Shown in pieces: positions 21,580 to 58,735 of a stretch of 64,000 nucleotides of DNA. Made by a program: the position numbers and the translations under genes. The stretch's first letter is position 1, and each line of letters starts with the position of its first letter. The stretch spans positions 712,567-776,566 of the forward strand of contig JBMNFB010000001.1 in assembly GCA_050949085.1 (NCBI GenBank), given 5' to 3'. This stretch comes from Bacillota bacterium. Its GTDB lineage: Bacteria > Bacillota > UBA994 > UBA5500. A model generated the notes under the pieces. It saw nothing but the letters and a program-made list of their open reading frames with translations, made no database searches and was not told the origin of the DNA.

Positions 21580-22446
21580 CTAGAACGAAATGATCAGCCC
21601 GCCCTCGCCGGCGTAGGTGGCCATGGTAGCGCCCATGGCATTGATGATCACATCGCGCGCGTTGCTGCGCTCGGTCAGCGCTTGCCCAATATCAGCCGCG
21701 TCCGCCGAATTCCGGAAATGAGTGATACCCACATCGCGTCCCGTGAGGTCGGGAGCAAAACCCTGGATGGTGTGCAGCGCCCGGCCAAGAAACCTCTTGC
21801 CGCCGCGCACCTTCTCCAGCAGCTGCACCTCCCCATCCACGTTGTGAAGCAGCGCCCGGATGTTAAGGACATTCGCCAGTCCCCCCTGCAGGCGACTGAG
21901 GCGGCCGCCCTTGACGATGTTCTCAAGGGTCTGGAGCAGAATGACGATCTTCATCCGCTGACGGTATTGCTGCAGCTCGTCCAGCGCTTCGCGCATGGTG
22001 CATCCAGCCTTCGCCAGCTCGCAGGCTTTGAGCACCTGCAGTCCATGCCCAAGCGATCCGGCCAGAGTATCGAACACATTGGCACCGACAGCGGATAAAT
22101 CGCGACCCAGGCAGGCCGACTGATAGGTGCCGCTAAGCTTGGACGAGATAGTCAGGCAGAGTACCTGGCCAAAATCCGAGAGTTCGCGGAAGACGTCGGC
22201 AAAGACGGCCGGCGAAGGCTGCGAAGTCTTAGGTAGCGCCTGGCTGCGCGCCATCCTGTCGTAGAATTCAGCCTGGCTGATATCTACCCCTTCTCGAAAC
22301 ACTTCGCCATCGATGCTGATGTTCAGCGGGACAACCTTGATGTTGTGTTCCTTAACGAGTTCCTCCGGCAGATCACAGGAGCTGTCGGTGACTACCTGCA
22401 GCACTGCACCATCCCCCCATTCATGCGGTTGGGCCTGACAGAACAT
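21580..22446 (-). CDS. DegV-family fatty-acid-binding protein
   Basis: VVTDSSCDLP...KVVPL DegV N-terminal signature; start approximate. Confidence 0.85.
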   Translation of the reverse strand: MFCQAQPHEWGDGAVLQVVTDSSCDLPEELVKEHNIKVVPLNISIDGEVFREGVDISQAEFYDRMARSQALPKTSQPSPAVFADVFRELSDFGQVLCLTISSKLSGTYQSACLGRDLSAVGANVFDTLAGSLGHGLQVLKACELAKAGCTMREALDELQQYRQRMKIVILLQTLENIVKGGRLSRLQGGLANVLNIRALLHNVDGEVQLLEKVRGGKRFLGRALHTIQGFAPDLTGRDVGITHFRNSADAADIGQALTERSNARDVIINAMGATMATYAGEGGLIISF

Positions 22447-22591
22447 TCCTGTCTCTATGATGCCCACAAGGGGACAGTTTCTCCACCCTGCTCGATAGTC
22501 CTGCATACGAAAGAACTGTTCGGGTAAGATCGCGCCACTCGATGACTCCCAACCTGGGATTGGTCGATTCAGTCACATTGCTTCCCTCCCT

Positions 22592-23368
22592 TCAGGCGAG
22601 GTATGGCCGTACCCATATCAGGCTCATTCGGCAGCGGGGATCACTCCCCCTCCCCACGAGAGGCGAGGACTCGCCAGACGGGAGCTCCTCGCTATCGTCC
22701 CTGGCGGCCAGGGCAAACGCCTTCTCCAGATAGTCCAGCGCACTGTCCGGCCGGCCACCCTCGGCTTCGATCTCGGCCACGTTGACCGCCTCCATCCACC
22801 CCTGGAAGAGAAGGCTGCCTGTACGGCCGAAGAGTTCAGCCAGAGCAACCAGCTGATCGCCATGGCGTTTGGCGATAGCTGGCGCGCCCTGGCGACGCAC
22901 GATTGAGGCCAGGCAGCTCAGGGAGAGCGCTATCGTGTTCAGGCTGCGTTCCAGGTTCGAGCGAGCGGTCCGCTCGGCCTGTTCGTAATCCTGTCTGCGA
23001 AAATACAGCTGCGCCAGTGCCGGGCTGGGGTCAAATTCGACGGCTGGCAGCAGCTTGCGGAAGCAGGCTTCAGCCTCGGCGTATTGCCCCTGATCCAGAT
23101 AGAGGTATCCCAGCGAATGATAGGCCGCCGGTTCGTGTAATGCCAGTTGCAGGAGCAGCTCTCTGGCTTCATCCAGGTACGTCTTGTCCCCCTTCCGCTG
23201 CCCTAGCCAGGACGGGGTGAAGGCCAGCAATTGGCGCAGTTCCGGGTCATCCGGTTTGAGTCTCTCGCCCTCTCGCAGCCTACCCACAGCATCTCCTCTG
23301 CCACTGGCTCCGACCGCGGCCGCCTGACCCAGTCGAGGGCGAGACGTCGGGCGATGGTGCATAGCCAC
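22592..23368 (-). CDS. TPR-repeat protein (start uncertain; 5' end overlaps the chimeric ORF)
   Basis: Multiple TPR-like motifs (AYHSLGYLYLDQGQYAEAEACFRKL, LYFRRQDYEQAERTAR). Confidence 0.55.
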   Translation of the reverse strand: MAMHHRPTSRPRLGQAAAVGASGRGDAVGRLREGERLKPDDPELRQLLAFTPSWLGQRKGDKTYLDEARELLLQLALHEPAAYHSLGYLYLDQGQYAEAEACFRKLLPAVEFDPSPALAQLYFRRQDYEQAERTARSNLERSLNTIALSLSCLASIVRRQGAPAIAKRHGDQLVALAELFGRTGSLLFQGWMEAVNVAEIEAEGGRPDSALDYLEKAFALAARDDSEELPSGESSPLVGRGSDPRCRMSLIWVRPYLA

Positions 23369-24582
23369 GGCCCGAAGCTCTCCGGACTGCGCAGGCTGGG
23401 AAGCCGCTGATAGGCCTTGATGAACGTTTCCTGGGCAATGTCCTCAGCCTGATGGAAATCGCCTGCGCGTGAACTGTGCGCCTCGAACAGCTCTGTCAAT
23501 GTCTGCAACTGACCAGCGCGCAGGCTGGTGTTCAGGAACTGGCCGTAACCCATGGATAGGCCAATCAACGTATACCCGAGCTGCCAGATGGCCCCGAGCG
23601 TGAGGACTATCTGGCCGGCCGTACCTCCACTGCTGACGATGGAGTCCAGAGGTACGATCAGCCCGGCCGCTGCCCCCAGCCAGGAGACGAATATCAGCAG
23701 CTCATTGAAAGCCACCTGCTTCTTATAAATGCCGAGCTGGCGGCGGTAGGCAGTGTCAAAGATCCCGCGGTACTTATCGACCAGGACGCGGCGCAGCCCG
23801 AACAGACTTCTCTCATGGGCCACCTGGTCGTCAAAGACCAGCTGCCGCAGGTAAGTAAGCTTGCGTCGCTCTGGCAGGTTGCCCAGCAAGCCAACCCAGG
23901 ACAGGCTGATAACCTTCTTCTCCAGGAACACCATCGGCAGCAGAGAGGCGATAACGAGGACAAGTACGAGTGGATGGGTCACCATGAGCAGGGCGATCAG
24001 CGCGGCCCCGGTTAGCAGATGGCTGACCATCCGCCGCAGCGCACTCACAGATAACATGACGTAAGCGCCCAGTTCACCCAGCAGGCGCACACTGTCGTGA
24101 TACAGCTCCTGCTCGAAAACCTCCAGTGTCTGGACGCGCGCCACCCGCTCGATCATCAGGGCAAGGGCGCGCTGATCCACCTTATCGCGCAAGACGGCCT
24201 GCAGCAGGCTGGGCAGGTTTTCGGCCGAAGTAGAAAACAGGAGCAAAATGGCATAGCAGGCTAATGCTCTGGAGCTGCGCGCCAGCCCCTCACTGATCAC
24301 GCTGTCCAGAGCGAGCTGCTGACTGCGCAGCAAGACGGCCGGCAGAAAACCCTGGAGCAGCATTTTCGCCAGAAACAGGGCGAACAACAACGGGCTCGGG
24401 CGGTTAAAGTGACGGCGAACTTGAGAGTGGCGATCAGGTTGCTGCGCTGCTGCATATCTCGTCCTCCCATCTGCACGTGGCAGAGGAATAAAAACCCCTC
24501 CGTCAATACAGACGGGTGAGAGGCGCAAGAACTGTCTTGAATCTGAAAGTAGAGCGGCGGGACAAGCGAAACGGGAGGGCAT
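23203..24582 (-). CDS. Chimeric ORF: ABC-exporter-type six-helix membrane domain fused in frame to an ECF sigma-70 region-2-like segment; no NBD and no region 4 (fusion or pseudogene candidate)
   Basis: N-terminal 400 aa resembles ABC_membrane TMDs (x-loop/coupling-helix region, ...LQTLTELFE end). C-terminus AEDIAQETFIKAYQRLPSLRSPESFGPWLCTIARRLALDWVRR matches sigma70_r2. Confidence 0.45.
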   Translation of the reverse strand: MPSRFACPAALLSDSRQFLRLSPVCIDGGVFIPLPRADGRTRYAAAQQPDRHSQVRRHFNRPSPLLFALFLAKMLLQGFLPAVLLRSQQLALDSVISEGLARSSRALACYAILLLFSTSAENLPSLLQAVLRDKVDQRALALMIERVARVQTLEVFEQELYHDSVRLLGELGAYVMLSVSALRRMVSHLLTGAALIALLMVTHPLVLVLVIASLLPMVFLEKKVISLSWVGLLGNLPERRKLTYLRQLVFDDQVAHERSLFGLRRVLVDKYRGIFDTAYRRQLGIYKKQVAFNELLIFVSWLGAAAGLIVPLDSIVSSGGTAGQIVLTLGAIWQLGYTLIGLSMGYGQFLNTSLRAGQLQTLTELFEAHSSRAGDFHQAEDIAQETFIKAYQRLPSLRSPESFGPWLCTIARRLALDWVRRPRSEPVAEEMLWVGCERARDSNRMTRNCANCWPSPRPG

Positions 24583-24599
24583 AACCCTCCCTTTTCGCC

Positions 24600-27221
24600 C
24601 TAGAGATTCTCGTTTTTCAGAGCGTCGAGGATGTTTTCGCGGCGCACGCGGTTGCGCGAATACTTCATGCTGATAAAGACAACCAGGAAGACGCTGATGG
24701 TGGCGATGGCCATTCCAGTGAGCGGCAGCCGGAACGGCATATCGACGCCTTCGTTAATGCTGCCGTGGATCAGCCAGGTGACCCCGACTGAGACGGGCAG
24801 GCCGTAAAGCAGCGCGCGCAGTCCGTAAAAGATGCACTCGAAGTCGAGCATGCGGTTGAAGCCTTTCTCGGTCATCCCCACCGACTTCAACATGGCAAAC
24901 TCGCGTCGCCGCAGGTTGACATTGGTGGAGATGGTGTTGAAGACGTTGGCAATGGTGATCAGCGACATCAGGACGATGAATCCGTATGAGAAAACGGAGA
25001 TGATGGTGATCAGACTGCGGTCCGACTGCCCGGCTTCAGCCATATTGTAGAGGTTGCTGATGGGCAGACCCTGGGTCTGGAGAACCTCGCGAATCTCTTC
25101 TTCGGCCTGCGCAGGTCGATCGGCTGTTAGATAGATGCTGGTGAAATTCGGCTCGCCCCAAAGGGCCGTTGCCAGCTGAGCATCGATGACGAGGAAGATC
25201 TCTCCGTGCTGAGCATAGGGCTGTACGCCCTGTGGCGCTGTATCGGCCAGCGCAGCCACTTGCATCTGCACCGCTGTCGGCGCTTCACCGCCGTCCCAGA
25301 GCGTCAGCTCCAGGCTTGTCGGCGCCGGACGGGCAAAGATACTGGTGTTGCGGTATCTGCCCTCCGCCGGGCTGTAGAAGTGCTGCTGGTCGATGACGAT
25401 GGCTGCCGGTCTCTCTGGCTTCCGCAATTCAGCAGCATCAAGACCGAATCCAGCGGCATAGTCGCTGAAGGTAGCCGAGTCCACGGCGTGGATGCGCAGG
25501 CTTACGGTAAGCGCCCCCTCTTCCCCACCAGTCTCTGCTCCTCCCGACCCTTCGTAGTAATCGGGATCGACCTGCTCCGGCTGCAGCTTTACGCTGCCAT
25601 AGTATGGCGAGACGATGGAGCCGGAACTGACACTGGGCAATGCGATAAGCTGGGCCCGGAGCGGCTCAACAGGGATCTGGGCCAATGCTGCGTTCACCAT
25701 GTAATAAGAAAGGTCGTAGTTCGTGTTCTCATAGACGTTGCTCACACCATTGCGCAGGTATCCGGAAAAAGCAGTCGCCGATATGAAGAGCACCACGCTG
25801 ATAAACAGCGAGAAAACGGTGCTGCGATAGCGGCGCCGGCTGCGCTTGAGGTTCTTCAGGGCTAGCTCGCCCGGGAAGCCGAACAGCTTCCGGGTCAGGC
25901 GCGAGGTCCTGACTTGTTTGGCGGACACCCTGGTCTCACTGGTCTGTCTGATGGCATCCATGGCCGAAATTCGGGCCACCCGGCGTGCCGGGATATAGGC
26001 CGAAATCAGTATCGTCACCAGCGCCAGCAGAGCCGAAATCAGCAGGGCAGGCAGCGGCACAACGAGATGGAAGGTAACCGCCTGGCCCATTACACTCCGC
26101 CCCAATACGACGGCCAATTCGGTCTCCAGGCAACGCAGCGTGACGGCGATGCCGGCTACGCCAGCACCGATACCCAACGGCACGCCGATTCCGCCAATGA
26201 TCAGGGCCTCAAAGAAGACGGAACGTTTCAGCTGCCGAGCAGTCGCACCGACGCTGGCCAGCAAACCGAAGTGTTTCTCCCGCTCGCTGGTGGAGATAGA
26301 GAACGAGTTATTGATCAGGCTGACTGAGCCGACGACGATCAGTCCGAGCAGAATGGCACCCAGACCATAGAGGGCGGTCAGGAAATTGCGGTTACCGCTG
26401 ATCCCCATAAAGCGCAGGAGCTCACTATTTGTCTCGATACTGCTGTACTCATTTAGTACAAGCTCTCTCTCTATCCGACTGGTTAGCTGATAGATCCGCC
26501 GCGGGTTACTGGCTCGGAAGTAGATCGTGATTTGTCCATCGCTGAGCGCCTCCTCGGCGAGTAGTGAGTAGAGCGTGAACCCTGGGGACGAGAAGCCTTC
26601 TATCGACCACGCTGGCCGACTGGCTAGGCCGACGATGGTGAAGGTCCTTGTCTCTTGCGGAACAAACCGCTCTGGATCGGTGTTATCCTCGCCTGATAAG
26701 TAGCTATTGTACTGATTCATGGCCCTCCCATCCGGCGCCAGGCGCTGCCCCAACTCCAGCGTCAGGGTTTCGCCCAGCCGATAGTTCACACCGCCTTCGG
26801 TGGCAATATGCGCCGTGATCACAGCTTCATCCGGCCGCTCTGGCAGCCGACCGCTCTCCAGACTGACGGGCATTGACTGAAAGGCCGCCTGATCATACTG
26901 CAACAGGTAAAGATAGGGCTTGCTGTCATGCCTGCTTCCAGGCAGCAGCGCATAGCCGCCGCCTTGCGCGACAGCCACGCCCTCCACGCCATCCATCTGT
27001 TGCAGGTCAGTCAGGTCGGCAACAGTGGCGTTATGCACGACTGCGTGCCAGTCACCCTCGTTAGCGATGGTGTAATCGATGATGTAAGCCTGCAGGCTGG
27101 CGATGAGCGTAGTTACGGCCGTAATCATCGCTGCCGAGAGAATAACGCCGATGATTGTGACAATCGTGCGCGTCCGGTTTTTTCTTAACCCCGCCAGGGT
27201 GACCCGGTTGATAACGTTCAT
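24600..27221 (-). CDS. ABC transporter permease with duplicated FtsX/MacB-like units (873 aa)
   Basis: Two 4-helix FtsX-type modules, each preceded by a large extracytoplasmic domain. Confidence 0.85.
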   Translation of the reverse strand: MNVINRVTLAGLRKNRTRTIVTIIGVILSAAMITAVTTLIASLQAYIIDYTIANEGDWHAVVHNATVADLTDLQQMDGVEGVAVAQGGGYALLPGSRHDSKPYLYLLQYDQAAFQSMPVSLESGRLPERPDEAVITAHIATEGGVNYRLGETLTLELGQRLAPDGRAMNQYNSYLSGEDNTDPERFVPQETRTFTIVGLASRPAWSIEGFSSPGFTLYSLLAEEALSDGQITIYFRASNPRRIYQLTSRIERELVLNEYSSIETNSELLRFMGISGNRNFLTALYGLGAILLGLIVVGSVSLINNSFSISTSEREKHFGLLASVGATARQLKRSVFFEALIIGGIGVPLGIGAGVAGIAVTLRCLETELAVVLGRSVMGQAVTFHLVVPLPALLISALLALVTILISAYIPARRVARISAMDAIRQTSETRVSAKQVRTSRLTRKLFGFPGELALKNLKRSRRRYRSTVFSLFISVVLFISATAFSGYLRNGVSNVYENTNYDLSYYMVNAALAQIPVEPLRAQLIALPSVSSGSIVSPYYGSVKLQPEQVDPDYYEGSGGAETGGEEGALTVSLRIHAVDSATFSDYAAGFGLDAAELRKPERPAAIVIDQQHFYSPAEGRYRNTSIFARPAPTSLELTLWDGGEAPTAVQMQVAALADTAPQGVQPYAQHGEIFLVIDAQLATALWGEPNFTSIYLTADRPAQAEEEIREVLQTQGLPISNLYNMAEAGQSDRSLITIISVFSYGFIVLMSLITIANVFNTISTNVNLRRREFAMLKSVGMTEKGFNRMLDFECIFYGLRALLYGLPVSVGVTWLIHGSINEGVDMPFRLPLTGMAIATISVFLVVFISMKYSRNRVRRENILDALKNENL

Positions 27222-27901
27222 CAGCGGATCACCTCGTCGCGGGCGATTCTCCCATCCTCGATGCTGATCACTCGGTCGGCCTGAATGGCAATCCGTTCAT
27301 CGTGGGTAATGATGATCAGGGTCTGCTTATACTGCCGATTGAACAGCTTCAGCAGACTGACGATCTCCCTGCTATTCTTGCTGTCCAGATTACCGGTGGG
27401 CTCGTCGGCCAGCACCAGCGCCGGGTGGTTGATCAGCGCCCGCCCGATGGAAACCCGCTGCTGCTCGCCACCCGAAAGCTGATTGGGCAGATGATGCAGC
27501 CGGCCCGTGAGCCCCAGGGTGGTGAGTAACTGCTGCAGGTACTCCTGATCCTCTTCCCGACCGTCTAGCAGCAGCGGCAGGGTGATATTTTCTTCGACGT
27601 TGAGCACAGGGATAAGGTTATAGAACTGGTAGATCAACCCGATCTGACGACGCCGGAAAATGGCTAGCCGGGATTCGTCCAGACTGTAGATATCGGCCCC
27701 ATCGATGAGTACCTTGCCAGATGTGGGGCGGTCCACGCCGCCAATCATGTGTAGCAGCGTCGACTTGCCCGAGCCGGAAGGCCCGATCACAGCGACAAAT
27801 TCGCCTTCTTCCACCGTGAGTGACACGTTGTCCAGAGCAGTGACTGCGGTCTGCCCCTGGCCATAGATCTTGGTCAGGTCTTGCACCTGAAGTAATGGCA
27901 T
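27221..27901 (-). CDS. ABC transporter ATP-binding protein (MacB/LolD-type)
   Basis: GPSGSGKST Walker A, LSGGEQQRV signature, LVLADEPTGNLD Walker B. Start taken as the internal ATG (MPLLQVQDL); the track ORF starts at 27988. Confidence 0.9.
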   Translation of the reverse strand: MPLLQVQDLTKIYGQGQTAVTALDNVSLTVEEGEFVAVIGPSGSGKSTLLHMIGGVDRPTSGKVLIDGADIYSLDESRLAIFRRRQIGLIYQFYNLIPVLNVEENITLPLLLDGREEDQEYLQQLLTTLGLTGRLHHLPNQLSGGEQQRVSIGRALINHPALVLADEPTGNLDSKNSREIVSLLKLFNRQYKQTLIIITHDERIAIQADRVISIEDGRIARDEVIR

Positions 27902-28002
27902 GAAAGCACCTCCATGATTACCCTTCTGAGCCGATTCTACAAAACCTAGGTGACTTTCCAGTGACTGCGCCGGTGACAATTTAGTCACCCTGGGCCGACA
28001 CT

Positions 28003-29019
28003 CTACACTGCAGACTTGTAGAACCGCAGATAGAAGGTGCTGCCCTCCCCTGCCCTGCTCTCTACTGTGATGTCACCCTGCTGGCTGCGCATGATGCTGC
28101 GCGACATGGCCAGACCGATGCCGATGCTATCGGGCGAGGCATTCTTGCCCCGATAGAAGCGAGTAAAGATGTGGGGCAAGTCTGCCCTTTCGATGCCGCT
28201 TCCGTTATCGGCAATGGTCATCTCGCTGTACAGAGGATTATTCGACACAGCGATCTCAATCCGCCCGCCATGCGGTGTGTGCTCAATGGAGTTTTTCAGG
28301 ATGTTGGTCAGGGCTTCTGTCGTCCAGGGGAGGTCACAACAGACAACTTCCTCGGAACCAATCTGCACGCAATCGATCTCTTTCGCCTCCAGGCGAATCA
28401 GCAGAGGCTGCAATGCTCGATCCAGAAGCGTCTGTGCAAGAACGGGGGCACGCTTCATCTGCACCACGCCAGTATCCAGCTGGGACATCCTCAGCAGCGC
28501 CGAGACCAGCCATTCCATGCGTTCCAGCTGAGCACGCAGGTGCGAGGTGAACTCGCGGCGACGGGCGAGGGGGAGCTGCTCATCCTGCAGCAGGTCGACC
28601 ATCACCAGCAGCGAAGTGAGTGGGGTCTTCAGCTGATGCGAGATATCGGCCATCTGCTCGGCCAGGAGCAGCTTGTCGTGCTGCAGTTGCTCGTTGTACT
28701 CGGAGAGCATCTGTGTGACCTTGTAGATCTCGCTTTTCAGGATACTCAGCTCGCCTTCCTCGTTGTCTCGAATATCCAGGGCCGCGCCGCGTCCTGCGCT
28801 GAGGCGCCGCAAGTACTCGGACAGACGGCGAATGTTTCGGTAGCGCTGTGCGGTGAAAGCGGCGAAAATCAGCGAAAGCAGAATGACGCTGCTGAGGACA
28901 AGGAGCGCTGTCGGAGGGCCAATTAGCCAGCCGGCACCGATCAGCACCAGACCCAGCGCTGCCAGCGCCAGTAGTAACGCGCGCACTTCCCCAAAGCGCA
29001 GCAATCCGAATCCCCCCAT
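28003..29019 (-). CDS. Membrane sensor histidine kinase (HisKA + HATPase_c)
   Basis: Two N-terminal TM segments, H-box ADISHQLKTPLTSL, HATPase_c; stop adjacent to the regulator start. Confidence 0.85.
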   Translation of the reverse strand: MGGFGLLRFGEVRALLLALAALGLVLIGAGWLIGPPTALLVLSSVILLSLIFAAFTAQRYRNIRRLSEYLRRLSAGRGAALDIRDNEEGELSILKSEIYKVTQMLSEYNEQLQHDKLLLAEQMADISHQLKTPLTSLLVMVDLLQDEQLPLARRREFTSHLRAQLERMEWLVSALLRMSQLDTGVVQMKRAPVLAQTLLDRALQPLLIRLEAKEIDCVQIGSEEVVCCDLPWTTEALTNILKNSIEHTPHGGRIEIAVSNNPLYSEMTIADNGSGIERADLPHIFTRFYRGKNASPDSIGIGLAMSRSIMRSQQGDITVESRAGEGSTFYLRFYKSAV

Positions 29020-29709
29020 CTAGATCTGATACCCCAGGCCGCGCACCGTCTTGATGATCTGCGGATTCTGCGGGTCATCCTCAACCTTTTCGCGCAATCG
29101 CTTAATGTAGACCGTCAGGGTATTGTCATTGACAAAATCGCCAGAAACATCCCAGACGCTCTGAAGCAGCTGCGTGCGAGTCACTGTCTGCCCGGCGTGG
29201 TTGATCAAGGTCAGCAGCAGGCGATACTCCAGCGCGGTGAGGAAGAGGTCGTTGCCGCCCTTGCTCACCTTCCCTTCGCTCAGGTTGACCAGCAAGTTCC
29301 CGTGGCACCAGACGGCCTTCGCCTCGACACCAGGCCGGGTGCGACGCAGCACGCTGCGGATGCGCGACTGCAACTCCCGCAACCGAAACGGCTTGGTGAT
29401 ATAGTCATCGGCGCCAATATCAAGCCCCAGCACCACGCTGCCCTCGTCATCCCGGACGGTAAGGAAGATGACCGGCGTATCGCCCCTGGCCTTAAGCTCA
29501 CGGCAGATGTCAAATCCGTTGCCATCAGGCAGCGAAACGTCCAGCAGGGCCAAGTCAAACTGGGCAGCGGCGATTTGCTCGCGGGCAGAAGCAGCATCTG
29601 GACAGACGGTAACAGCGGAGCCCTCCTGTTTCAGGGCATATTCCAGGCCCAAAGCTATGGAGTGATCATCCTCCACCAGGATGATGCGCAGTTTCTGGTC
29701 CGGTCTCAT
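29020..29709 (-). CDS. OmpR/PhoB-family response regulator
   Basis: Receiver plus winged-helix output (TVRGLGYQI). Confidence 0.9.
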   Translation of the reverse strand: MRPDQKLRIILVEDDHSIALGLEYALKQEGSAVTVCPDAASAREQIAAAQFDLALLDVSLPDGNGFDICRELKARGDTPVIFLTVRDDEGSVVLGLDIGADDYITKPFRLRELQSRIRSVLRRTRPGVEAKAVWCHGNLLVNLSEGKVSKGGNDLFLTALEYRLLLTLINHAGQTVTRTQLLQSVWDVSGDFVNDNTLTVYIKRLREKVEDDPQNPQIIKTVRGLGYQI

Positions 29710-58400: not shown

Positions 58401-58735
58401 TGGAATACCTACACCTCCCCACTTTCCCTGAATGAAGTAGCACAACTCAGCAAACCGGGATTGCTTACTGAGACAGTTCTGCAGTTCATCACTGCAGCCC
58501 CAACCAGCTACACTTGAGGATGCAACTGGTTTCGGCGGCATTTCGCCCTCTCTGGCCTCATTGCTTCTCAGGCTCCACCAGAGATTCCTAAACGCCGCGC
58601 CTCTACCTCACCGGTCAAAGTGAGGCGTTGCTAGTATTAAGTTATCGCTAGTCTACAAGATAGGTGCCTGTCCTGTCAACCAAACTATATATATTTGCAG
58701 GATGATTGTCTCTGCAGGAGTTGGGCTTCTGATTA

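Follow-up and report, generated by a model that had tools for sequence, protein, structure and literature searches.

On the reverse strand of the window (the whole 64,000-nt stretch of DNA that was analysed, from contig JBMNFB010000001.1), a 459-aa ORF at 23203..24582 joins an exporter membrane domain (TMD) in frame to a fragment of an ECF sigma factor, and a second ORF with TPR motifs overlaps its 3' part in another frame (Table 1). Both ORFs lie where the original prediction had placed them. It had read the locus either as a deletion or fusion scar or as an unusual membrane-tethered module derived from a sigma factor, with the TPR ORF as a conjectural anti-sigma-like partner.

Table 1. Features of the chimeric locus, listed in the direction of transcription (positions in the window)
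Feature	Position	Strand	Remarks
Terminator-like hairpin GGGAGGG-TTATG-CCCTCCC, then GTTTCGCTTG	24573..24591	(-)	Terminator scan
Codons 1 to ~62 of the 459-aa ORF, read in the ORF frame	24397..24582	(-)	Leader, probably non-coding
Shine-Dalgarno (SD) sequence GGAGG	24463..24467	(-)	7 nt upstream of ATG 24455, in a frame other than that of the ORF
Putative ancestral exporter N-terminus MQQRSNLIATLKFAVTLTAR	24396..24455	(-)	Frame differs from that of the rest of the TMD
ABCB-type (type I exporter) TMD remnant	23464..24396	(-)	Contiguous, no internal frameshifts, ends in the TMD-NBD linker
Junction 1, aa ~363-374, LTELFEAHSSRA	23461..23496	(-)	Exporter linker homology fades and sigma-2 homology starts; spanning stretch …ELFEAHSSRAGDFHQAEDIAQ…
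ECF sigma region-2 fragment, part of region 2.1 to region 2.4, AEDIAQETFIKAY...WLCTIARRLALDWVRR	23320..23469	(-)	Pfam
Short linker RRPRSEPVAEEML after the sigma-2 fragment	to ~23288	(-)	
Junction 2 (sigma-4 loss)	~23290±20	(-)	
Tail of the chimeric ORF, WVGCERARDSNRMTRNCANCWPSPRPG*	23203..23287	(-)	Read-through, out of frame, across the 5' part of the TPR gene
TPR ORF, 258 aa	22592..23368	(-)	Overlaps the 459-aa ORF by 166 nt in another frame
Orphan TPR protein gene, most plausible extent	22592..23287	(-)	GTG 23287, AGGAG at 23297-23293, 231 aa

The N-terminal ~310 aa are a true ABCB-type exporter membrane domain with six helices. This family surfaced only in an exhaustive HMMER search, which returned 301 matches at E≤1e-3 for aa 66-362, most of them ~600-aa proteins in which the aligned part is residues ~30-320 and ABC_tran begins at ~aa 360; word-index searches, whether with the full ORF, with only the TMD or with the TPR ORF, found only the locus's own 97-100% clusters. 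Against a profile of 78 such exporters the ORF scored 224 bits, contiguously over positions 23-341, and the profile of the family spans MsbA, ABCB1 and TM288 from one end to the other. The AF2 model of the ORF had a pLDDT >90 over the TMD and matched McjD, PCAT1, MsbA, TAP and HlyB in Foldseek, with superposition over ~320 columns for the first three. The best identity of the membrane domain to any homologue is 29%, and Pfam ABC_membrane (PF00664) matched neither the ORF nor any of the nine closest homologues scanned. A search of the window for paralogues returned none. As had been predicted, sigma sequence stands where an NBD should start: Pfam detected no ABC_tran in the 459-aa ORF or the TPR ORF, homology stops at the linker in the alignments, and no NBD remnant was found in any of the three frames or elsewhere nearby. 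The missing NBD, at least 750 nt, is physically absent and not frameshifted.

Although the exporter assignment of the original prediction was upheld by HMMER, the profile, AF2 and Foldseek, it does not extend to the beginning of the ORF, whose first ~60 codons are almost certainly non-coding and probably read open by chance. The ATG of the ORF (24582-24580) falls within the loop of a hairpin that resembles a terminator, directly 3' of the stop codon of an FtsX/MacB-type permease gene; the extended stem has a dG of -25.7 kcal/mol (z -3.3). The exporter-profile alignment starts at aa 61, the earlier residues having no family similarity, and codon-usage log-odds are negative in the ORF frame at 24565-24430. 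In the frame of the SD and ATG, the coding signal is positive at 24475-24430. Three-frame translation placed a 1-nt frameshift at ~24396, which parts MQQRSNLIATLKFAVTLTAR from SPLLFALF..., and a 1-nt correction rejoins the two frames. The separated segment is collinear with the N-termini of homologues, for example CWFALKTAFRGSPVYF of the homologue P0008, where aa 5 of the query pairs with aa 5. Against the profile it covers positions 7-24 and adds only ~2 bits, so that the case for a frameshift rests on collinearity, the SD and ATG, and codon usage, and not on strong homology. Thus the SD and ATG (24467-24453) and the first 20 family-like codons lie in a frame other than that of the TMD, and no SD could be read in the sequence before the in-frame starts near the TMD. 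We also considered programmed -1 frameshifting at 24396, and rejected it on finding no slippery heptamer.

At junction 1, where the NBD and the start of a sigma gene are missing, the posterior of the exporter-profile alignment declines, and the alignment stops at aa 373. The sole Pfam match in the 459-aa ORF is Sigma70_r2 at aa 372-421 (E 1.2e-13), covering profile positions 16-67 of 71, and the motifs AEDIAQETF and WL..IAR are intact. The region-2 sequence that had been called clear is therefore present, but its own N-terminal part is cut short: helix 1 is either absent or replaced, regions 2.1-2.4 are incomplete, and BLASTP against a full ECF sigma required an 8-aa gap in helix 1. Many ECF models of NCBIfam matched region 2 only, at 25-47 bits, all well below their cut-offs of 43-265, and TIGR02937 scored 32.2 against a cut-off of 42.9. 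In line with the original prediction, Pfam detected neither Sigma70_r4 nor r4_2 in the ORF, nor was region 4 found in the other frames, whereas the same tool showed both sigma domains in the sigma factor of the nearest related genome, used for comparison. The missing sigma-4 (at least 150 nt) is likewise physically absent and not frameshifted. Such a fragment should be unable to recognise a -35 element, and holoenzyme formation is unlikely. The sigma part of the AF2 model had low pLDDT, and the MSA held no sigma sequences, hence the model is uninformative on folding.

Downstream of the sigma fragment, between 23305 and 23260, the coding signal leaves the frame of the ORF and passes to that of the TPR gene, where it begins only ~33 nt after the end of region 2. 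The predicted 166-nt overlap holds for the two ORFs as such. The most plausible start of the TPR gene is GTG 23287, with AGGAG 5 nt upstream, and with this start the real overlap would be 85 nt or less. Gene callers chose a TTG start, giving 212 aa. The TPR identity was borne out by TPR_12 (E 3.7e-11) and by TPR_10/8/1/2, which passed their cut-offs, within the 258-aa ORF at aa ~63-114; the protein has two to three TPR motifs and is otherwise helical. Its last ~25 codons carry no coding signal. Sequence matches in the PDB were to designed or consensus TPRs only, no homologues were found beyond its own 97% cluster and generic TPR similarity, and tblastn against plasmids returned nothing; a single-sequence AF2 model (pLDDT 51) was too poor for a fold search. 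Given its good SD and GTG, the TPR ORF may be translated, and as far as the sequence indicates it evolves without visible constraint.

The architecture is identical in nine independent metagenome assemblies (99.1-99.97% identity) from different studies and assemblers, namely Logan unitigs, SPAdes, MEGAHIT, NCBI GCA_002049705.1, ENA and JGI. All nine show the same bases across the two junctions and stay collinear there and at the frameshift, and in the eight that were aligned base by base the frameshift at ~24396 is fixed, with no indel polymorphism there. One low-quality assembly (L008) has extra 1-nt deletions. Polymorphisms in the ORF and the TPR gene were all nonsynonymous (7:0, versus 14:15 in nine flanking genes; Fisher one-sided p=0.014), in a tiny sample of 7 sites with <1% divergence, at which dN/dS is generally inflated. 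The neutral expectation is ~74% nonsynonymous.

No other protein with the TMD-sigma architecture turned up in searches of 1.84 billion representatives and 5.8 billion clusters. A scan of genome contigs anchored on DegV found only two relatives and no intact ancestral locus. The nearest genome (66% identity for DegV and 79% for the amidohydrolase) has, at the syntenic site upstream of DegV, a different full ECF sigma/anti-sigma pair, and neither an exporter nor a TPR gene. The comparison with orthologous loci that had been suggested thus recovered a complete ECF system, but one whose sigma is only 33% identical and unrelated to the fragment. Scanning metagenome contigs with a concatenated TMD, sigma and TPR query returned only the locus itself and two unrelated ECF sigmas. 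No conserved linkage to sigma or TPR genes was seen near the closest exporter homologues: P0008 adjoins a radical-SAM gene, and P0009 forms a pair with another exporter, together with an HTH_5 gene.

Taken together, these data favour, with a probability of roughly 75%, the reading of the chimeric ORF as a deletion/frameshift scar, made of an exporter remnant and a sigma remnant beside an orphan, weakly constrained TPR gene, that is, a product of gene decay that has become fixed in a single uncultured species of Bacillota found in anaerobic digesters. Of the two explanations originally offered, the scar is favoured because the exporter N-terminus is frameshifted, the NBD and sigma-4 are absent, sigma-2 is 5'-truncated and nonsynonymous polymorphism is in excess. 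In this scenario, a gene for an ABCB-type half-transporter (TMD plus NBD), from an exporter family whose nearest folds are peptide exporters, would have taken a 1-nt frameshift at codon ~21 that cut the membrane domain off from its own SD and ATG. One deletion could then have taken the entire NBD and the sequence between the genes, together with the initial ~30-35 codons of an ECF sigma gene lying downstream, leaving the two remnants joined in frame by chance. A second lesion would have removed the sigma linker and region 4, ending just upstream of or within the TPR-protein gene. Because an intact ancestral locus was found in no relative, we infer this history rather than observe it, including the number and order of the deletions. 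The ORF is probably not expressed, to judge indirectly from the terminator-like hairpins upstream and the lack of an SD at in-frame starts. We propose that only its short age and the native frames of both remnants have kept the chimeric ORF, of 394-459 codons, open. Since it lacks a credible start of translation, an ATPase and sigma-4, and has only part of sigma-2, its product would be neither a transporter nor a sigma factor.

The TPR gene could also have arrived in a different way. Its ancestor may have been part of the sigma gene itself, an ECF sigma with a C-terminal TPR extension of ~200 aa from which an internal out-of-frame deletion removed sigma-4; we regard this as unlikely. It is compatible with decay and differs from separate sigma and TPR genes only in ancestry. 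The ECF42 group, which would be the model for such a gene, is mainly actinobacterial and proteobacterial, a distribution that counts against this origin. Its proteins have a TPR extension of ~200 residues, and the cited members come from Streptomyces and Pseudomonas (PMC8999054). The TPR part of the locus is of similar size (~200-230 aa) and starts within ~33 nt of the end of region 2 and its linker, but AGGAG and GTG, 5 nt apart, fall exactly at the onset of the TPR coding signal, as expected of an independent gene, no NCBIfam or Pfam match ties the TPR part to an ECF extension family, and the TPR ORF has no detectable homologues. An artefact of sequencing or assembly, in which indel errors or a chimeric contig would hide an intact exporter and a full ECF sigma, is highly improbable. 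The sequence is MAG-derived and L008 does contain additional deletions, but the nine assemblies show no indel at either junction or at the frameshift, and the two domains are physically missing; the same architecture in nine independent assemblies therefore led us to reject assembly error, and correction of errors recovers no intact NBD or sigma-4.

The other explanation first offered, a membrane-tethered sigma module, received no positive support. Here the ORF would be a functional new gene, started at TTG 24387, at ATG 24363 or by reinitiation, and encoding a six-helix membrane protein with a cytoplasmic sigma-2-derived domain that serves as a membrane-tethered decoy or adaptor, for instance by sequestering the neighbouring TPR protein, an anti-sigma factor or the clamp helices of RNAP beta'. 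In concept the protein would resemble ECF36, with its N-terminal TM extensions, or to the TPR-regulated ECF42, and natural ECFs with TM or TPR extensions do exist (PMC8999054). The ORF is open and identical in the nine assemblies, its TMD is still well formed in the AF2 model, its sigma-2 motifs are intact, and a TPR gene with its own SD lies directly downstream. However, the in-frame starts near the TMD lack an SD while the SD and ATG are in the wrong frame, terminator-like hairpins lie upstream, sigma-2 is without its first helix and sigma-4 is absent, all seven polymorphisms are nonsynonymous, and the architecture is confined to a single species-level lineage and has no conserved relatives, all of which makes this reading improbable. 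Slightly less probable again is that the membrane-anchored, sigma-4-less module and the orphan TPR protein form a new decoy or sequestration device for an ECF pathway, one that might be linked to the neighbouring BceRS/AB-like module for sensing peptide antibiotics. Should the ORF turn out to be both expressed and functional, it would be a membrane-tethered sigma-2 decoy without precedent.

Like half-transporters of the ABCB type, which have the 'type IV fold' and include MsbA, McjD, PCAT1 and TmrAB, the ORF has a TMD homologous to the N-terminal halves of ~600-aa TMD plus NBD proteins, but it lacks the NBD and its N-terminal ~20 residues are in another frame. It shares Sigma70_r2 and the motifs AEDxxQETF and WLxxIAR with ECF (group IV) sigma-70 factors, whereas it retains only positions 16-67 of region 2 and no sigma-4. 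The order of membrane helices, sigma domain and TPR superficially resembles ECF36, which has N-terminal TM helices, and ECF42, which has a C-terminal TPR domain of ~200 aa (PMC8999054). These groups, in contrast, keep a complete sigma-2 and sigma-4 core in one frame, while in the locus sigma-4 is gone and the TPR part is in another frame; furthermore, its membrane part is an ABC exporter TMD and not the anti-sigma-like extension of extended ECFs. Measured against intact homologues, the ORF carries disabling lesions (a frameshift and domain loss), and it shares with chimeric pseudogenes the frameshift, truncated unrelated domains in one ORF and restriction to one lineage, with a polymorphism pattern that may reflect relaxed constraint. 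It differs from them in being unusually long and clean, with an ancestral locus that was not recovered intact and deletions that we infer. For a remnant, about 310 TMD codons without interruption are unusual. The uninterrupted TMD and the intact sigma-2 motifs imply that the decay, if real, is recent, or that some constraint has acted.

The locus offers a clean, dated snapshot of how deletions can join unrelated genes into long, open chimeras in a single frame. Products of this kind are raw material from which new genes can arise; the present one shows no sign of acquired function. Its chief value is as a caution for annotation: the public record MGI6344131.1 labels the ORF "RNA polymerase sigma factor", although the membrane domain of an ABC exporter makes up ~80% of it and sigma-4 is missing.

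The 459-aa ORF between the permease and DegV genes joins an ABC-exporter membrane domain (TMD) to an ECF sigma region-2 fragment and overlaps a TPR ORF in another frame; the evidence supports a deletion-generated chimeric gene remnant as the best-fitting known kind of locus. The four genes upstream form, judging from their domain set, a predicted Bce-like peptide-antibiotic sensing and detoxification module.

Gene order around the chimeric ORF (window coordinates)
Feature	Position	Strand
Response regulator gene	29020-29709	-
Histidine kinase (HK) gene	28003-29019	-
ABC ATPase gene	27221-27988	-
873-aa FtsX/MacB_PCD permease gene	24600-27221	-
459-aa chimeric ORF	23203-24582	-
TPR ORF	22592-23368 (maximal extent)	-
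DegV gene	21580-22506	-

Pfam did not detect ABC_membrane in the 459-aa ORF, and word-index searches of 5.8 billion clusters matched nothing except the locus itself. When aa 66-362 were run against 1.84 billion representatives in an exhaustive HMMER scan, 301 matches reached E<=1e-3. Nearly all complete matches were 560-670-aa proteins aligned over their own residues ~30-320, the closest having ABC_tran from ~aa 360, and the top identity to any homologue was only 29%. A local profile built from 78 full-length matches aligned the chimeric ORF contiguously over positions 23-341 (224 bits), while a 40-sequence profile of the exporter family aligned end to end with MsbA, ABCB1, and TM288 from the PDB. 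With the exporter family as alignment, AlphaFold modeled the first ~305 residues at pLDDT >90, and Foldseek placed the model on McjD, PCAT1, MsbA, TAP, TmrAB, and HlyB. Together, these results bear out the exporter membrane domain of the original prediction. The best structural matches are peptide exporters (McjD, PCAT1, HlyB), and the closest homologue (P0008, 29% identity) is encoded directly after a Radical_SAM/Fer4_12 gene (contig L009, 4216-7800); the lost exporter may have come from a RiPP or bacteriocin export system.

The sigma region-2 fragment proposed to follow in frame was also recovered: Sigma70_r2 is the sole Pfam domain in the ORF (aa 372-421, E 1.2e-13, profile positions 16-67/71). 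Similarity to exporters tapers off at aa ~363-373 (…QLQTLTELFEAHSSRA), within the linker between the TMD and the nucleotide-binding domain (NBD), and sigma homology begins at aa 372. As this corresponds to profile position 16, and BLASTP against a complete ECF sigma factor had to open an 8-residue gap within the first helix of sigma-2, the sigma-2 domain is incomplete. At the second junction, beyond WLCTIARRLALDWVRRPRSEPVAEEML, the coding signal shifts from the ORF frame to the TPR frame (23305-23260). There, AGGAG (23297-23293) lies 5 nt 5' of GTG 23287, the likeliest TPR gene start, and the chimeric ORF's final 28 codons run out of frame over the 5' end of the TPR gene. Three-frame translation and Pfam/NCBIfam scans revealed no trace of the NBD or of sigma region 4, whose absence had been predicted; both are physically missing. 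No paralogues were found in the window.

The start of the ORF is also lesioned. A GC-rich hairpin (GGGAGGG TTATG CCCTCCC, then GTTTCGCTTG; dG -25.7 kcal/mol, z -3.3) starts 9 nt past the permease stop codon and holds ATG 24582 in its loop, and the ~60 codons that follow this ATG have no similarity to the exporter-family profile and negative codon-usage log-odds in the ORF frame. A canonical GGAGG (24467-24463) precedes ATG 24455 by 7 nt in another frame, and this second ATG opens the peptide MQQRSNLIATLKFAVTLTAR. This peptide is collinear with homologue N-termini (P0008 ...CWFALKTAFRGSPVYF), its frame has a positive coding signal, and a 1-nt correction at 24396 is needed to join it to SPLLFALF... 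Because the segment adds little to the profile score (~2 bits), the frameshift is argued from register, SD/ATG, and codon usage in combination. Between the permease terminator and the SD/ATG of the ancestral exporter there is another terminator-like hairpin, weaker than the first (CCGTCTGTATTGACGG, then AGGGGTTTTT; 24500-24515, - strand).

The ORF is almost certainly not an artefact of sequencing or assembly, as it is encoded in nine or more independent assemblies, including Logan (four different runs), two MEGAHIT ENA, one SPAdes ENA, NCBI GCA_002049705.1, and JGI. Eight of them aligned with the window at 99.1-99.97% identity, and neither the two junctions nor the N-terminal frameshift showed an indel; with the NBD and sigma-4 absent as well, error correction does not restore an intact exporter and a full ECF sigma factor. 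Across assemblies, all seven substitutions in the chimeric ORF (K73N and Y279C; ORF taken from TTG 24387) and the TPR ORF (H78Q, V157A, R168H, A175T, and V253G) were nonsynonymous, compared with 14 nonsynonymous and 15 synonymous in nine flanking bona fide genes, leaving out the recombinant ABC/FtsX pair (Fisher one-sided p = 0.014). The neutral expectation is ~74% nonsynonymous, and the pattern is no more than suggestive of decay, the sample being small.

A functional membrane-tethered sigma-2 decoy would fit an unbroken TMD that yields a good model and does not vary between strains. However, the ORF has no start signal, is not conserved outside one species, and shows no sign of purifying selection; a decoy is quite improbable. 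Of the two earlier readings, the deletion or fusion scar is supported and the unusual functional module is not, on the basis of the frameshifted start, the lost domains, the 7:0 polymorphism, and the distribution. With no ATPase, an incomplete sigma-2, and no sigma-4, the product, if made, could neither transport nor direct transcription.

For the deletion-generated remnant, we propose that exporter, ECF sigma, and TPR genes once stood in tandem downstream of the Bce-like operon. A 1-nt indel would have disabled the exporter start, a deletion spanning ~0.9 kb or more would have fused the exporter linker to mid sigma region 2.1 with the frame preserved (probability one in three), and a second lesion would have removed sigma-4. 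We infer the number and order of these events, as well as absent expression; the lesions and missing parts are directly visible. Alternatively, sigma and TPR could derive from a single gene resembling ECF42, an ECF sigma factor with a C-terminal TPR extension (PMC8999054).

No other protein in the searched collections has the same architecture. Among genomes sharing a syntenic DegV-amidohydrolase block, the nearest one found (L012, 7747-9916; MAG Bacillota bacterium JBMNFA010000006.1) has, upstream of DegV in place of the chimera, an ordinary complete ECF sigma factor (184 aa, r2+r4_2), only 33% identical to the fragment, together with a 173-aa ORF and a 362-aa single-TM protein without Pfam match, a putative anti-sigma factor. 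The group may thus have carried a sigma/anti-sigma pair beside DegV ancestrally.

The three pieces each belong to a well-known superfamily (ABCB-type exporters, ECF sigma factors, and TPR proteins). Unlike a functional ABCB-type exporter, the ORF has no NBD and a frameshifted start, and unlike a functional ECF sigma factor, the fragment has a truncated sigma-2, no sigma-4, and scores under all curated cut-offs. The likeness in arrangement to ECF36 (TM extension) and ECF42 is superficial, as the locus lacks the complete sigma core that defines those ECFs. Chimeric remnants made by deletion reflect an ordinary process, the present instance being undescribed. The public record MGI6344131.1, from the ORF's own protein cluster (P0001-P0006), reads 'MAG: RNA polymerase sigma factor [Bacillota bacterium]'. 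With only ~50/394 sigma-like residues and no sigma-4, this label is misleading and a likely propagating mis-annotation.

Pfam confirmed the overlapping ORF as a true TPR protein. It matched only generic or consensus TPRs among PDB sequences, and searches of clusters, PDB, and plasmids detected no homologues. Its SD and GTG may still drive translation of the gene, which however has the highest substitution density, every substitution being nonsynonymous. Coding signal is lost over its last ~25 codons (22592-22670, - strand; …SSPLVGRGSDPRCRMSLIWVRPYLA and stop), so the native C-terminus may also be disrupted. In one MEGAHIT assembly (L008), single bases are deleted from both the TPR ORF and DegV (aligned to 23044 and 22407); these deletions are probably assembly errors because DegV is affected too; the former could instead reflect further decay.

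Between strains (window versus same-species contigs L001, L005, L007, and L008), the ABC ATPase and permease genes (24600-27988, - strand) are 10-11% divergent, with at least three alleles, and everything around them differs by only 0.0-0.5% (HK 0.2%, chimeric ORF from the TTG start 0%). The breakpoints lie just inside the permease 3' end and near the HK/ATPase boundary, and N:S is 21:62 for the ATPase versus 101:129 for the permease. These features resemble the outcome of homologous recombination that replaced alleles, or of diversifying selection acting on a permease for resistance to peptide antibiotics. Elsewhere, no tRNA genes were found in the window, which carries a lysine riboswitch (58430-58613, - strand, 88 bits) and a glycine riboswitch (317-417, - strand, 64 bits).
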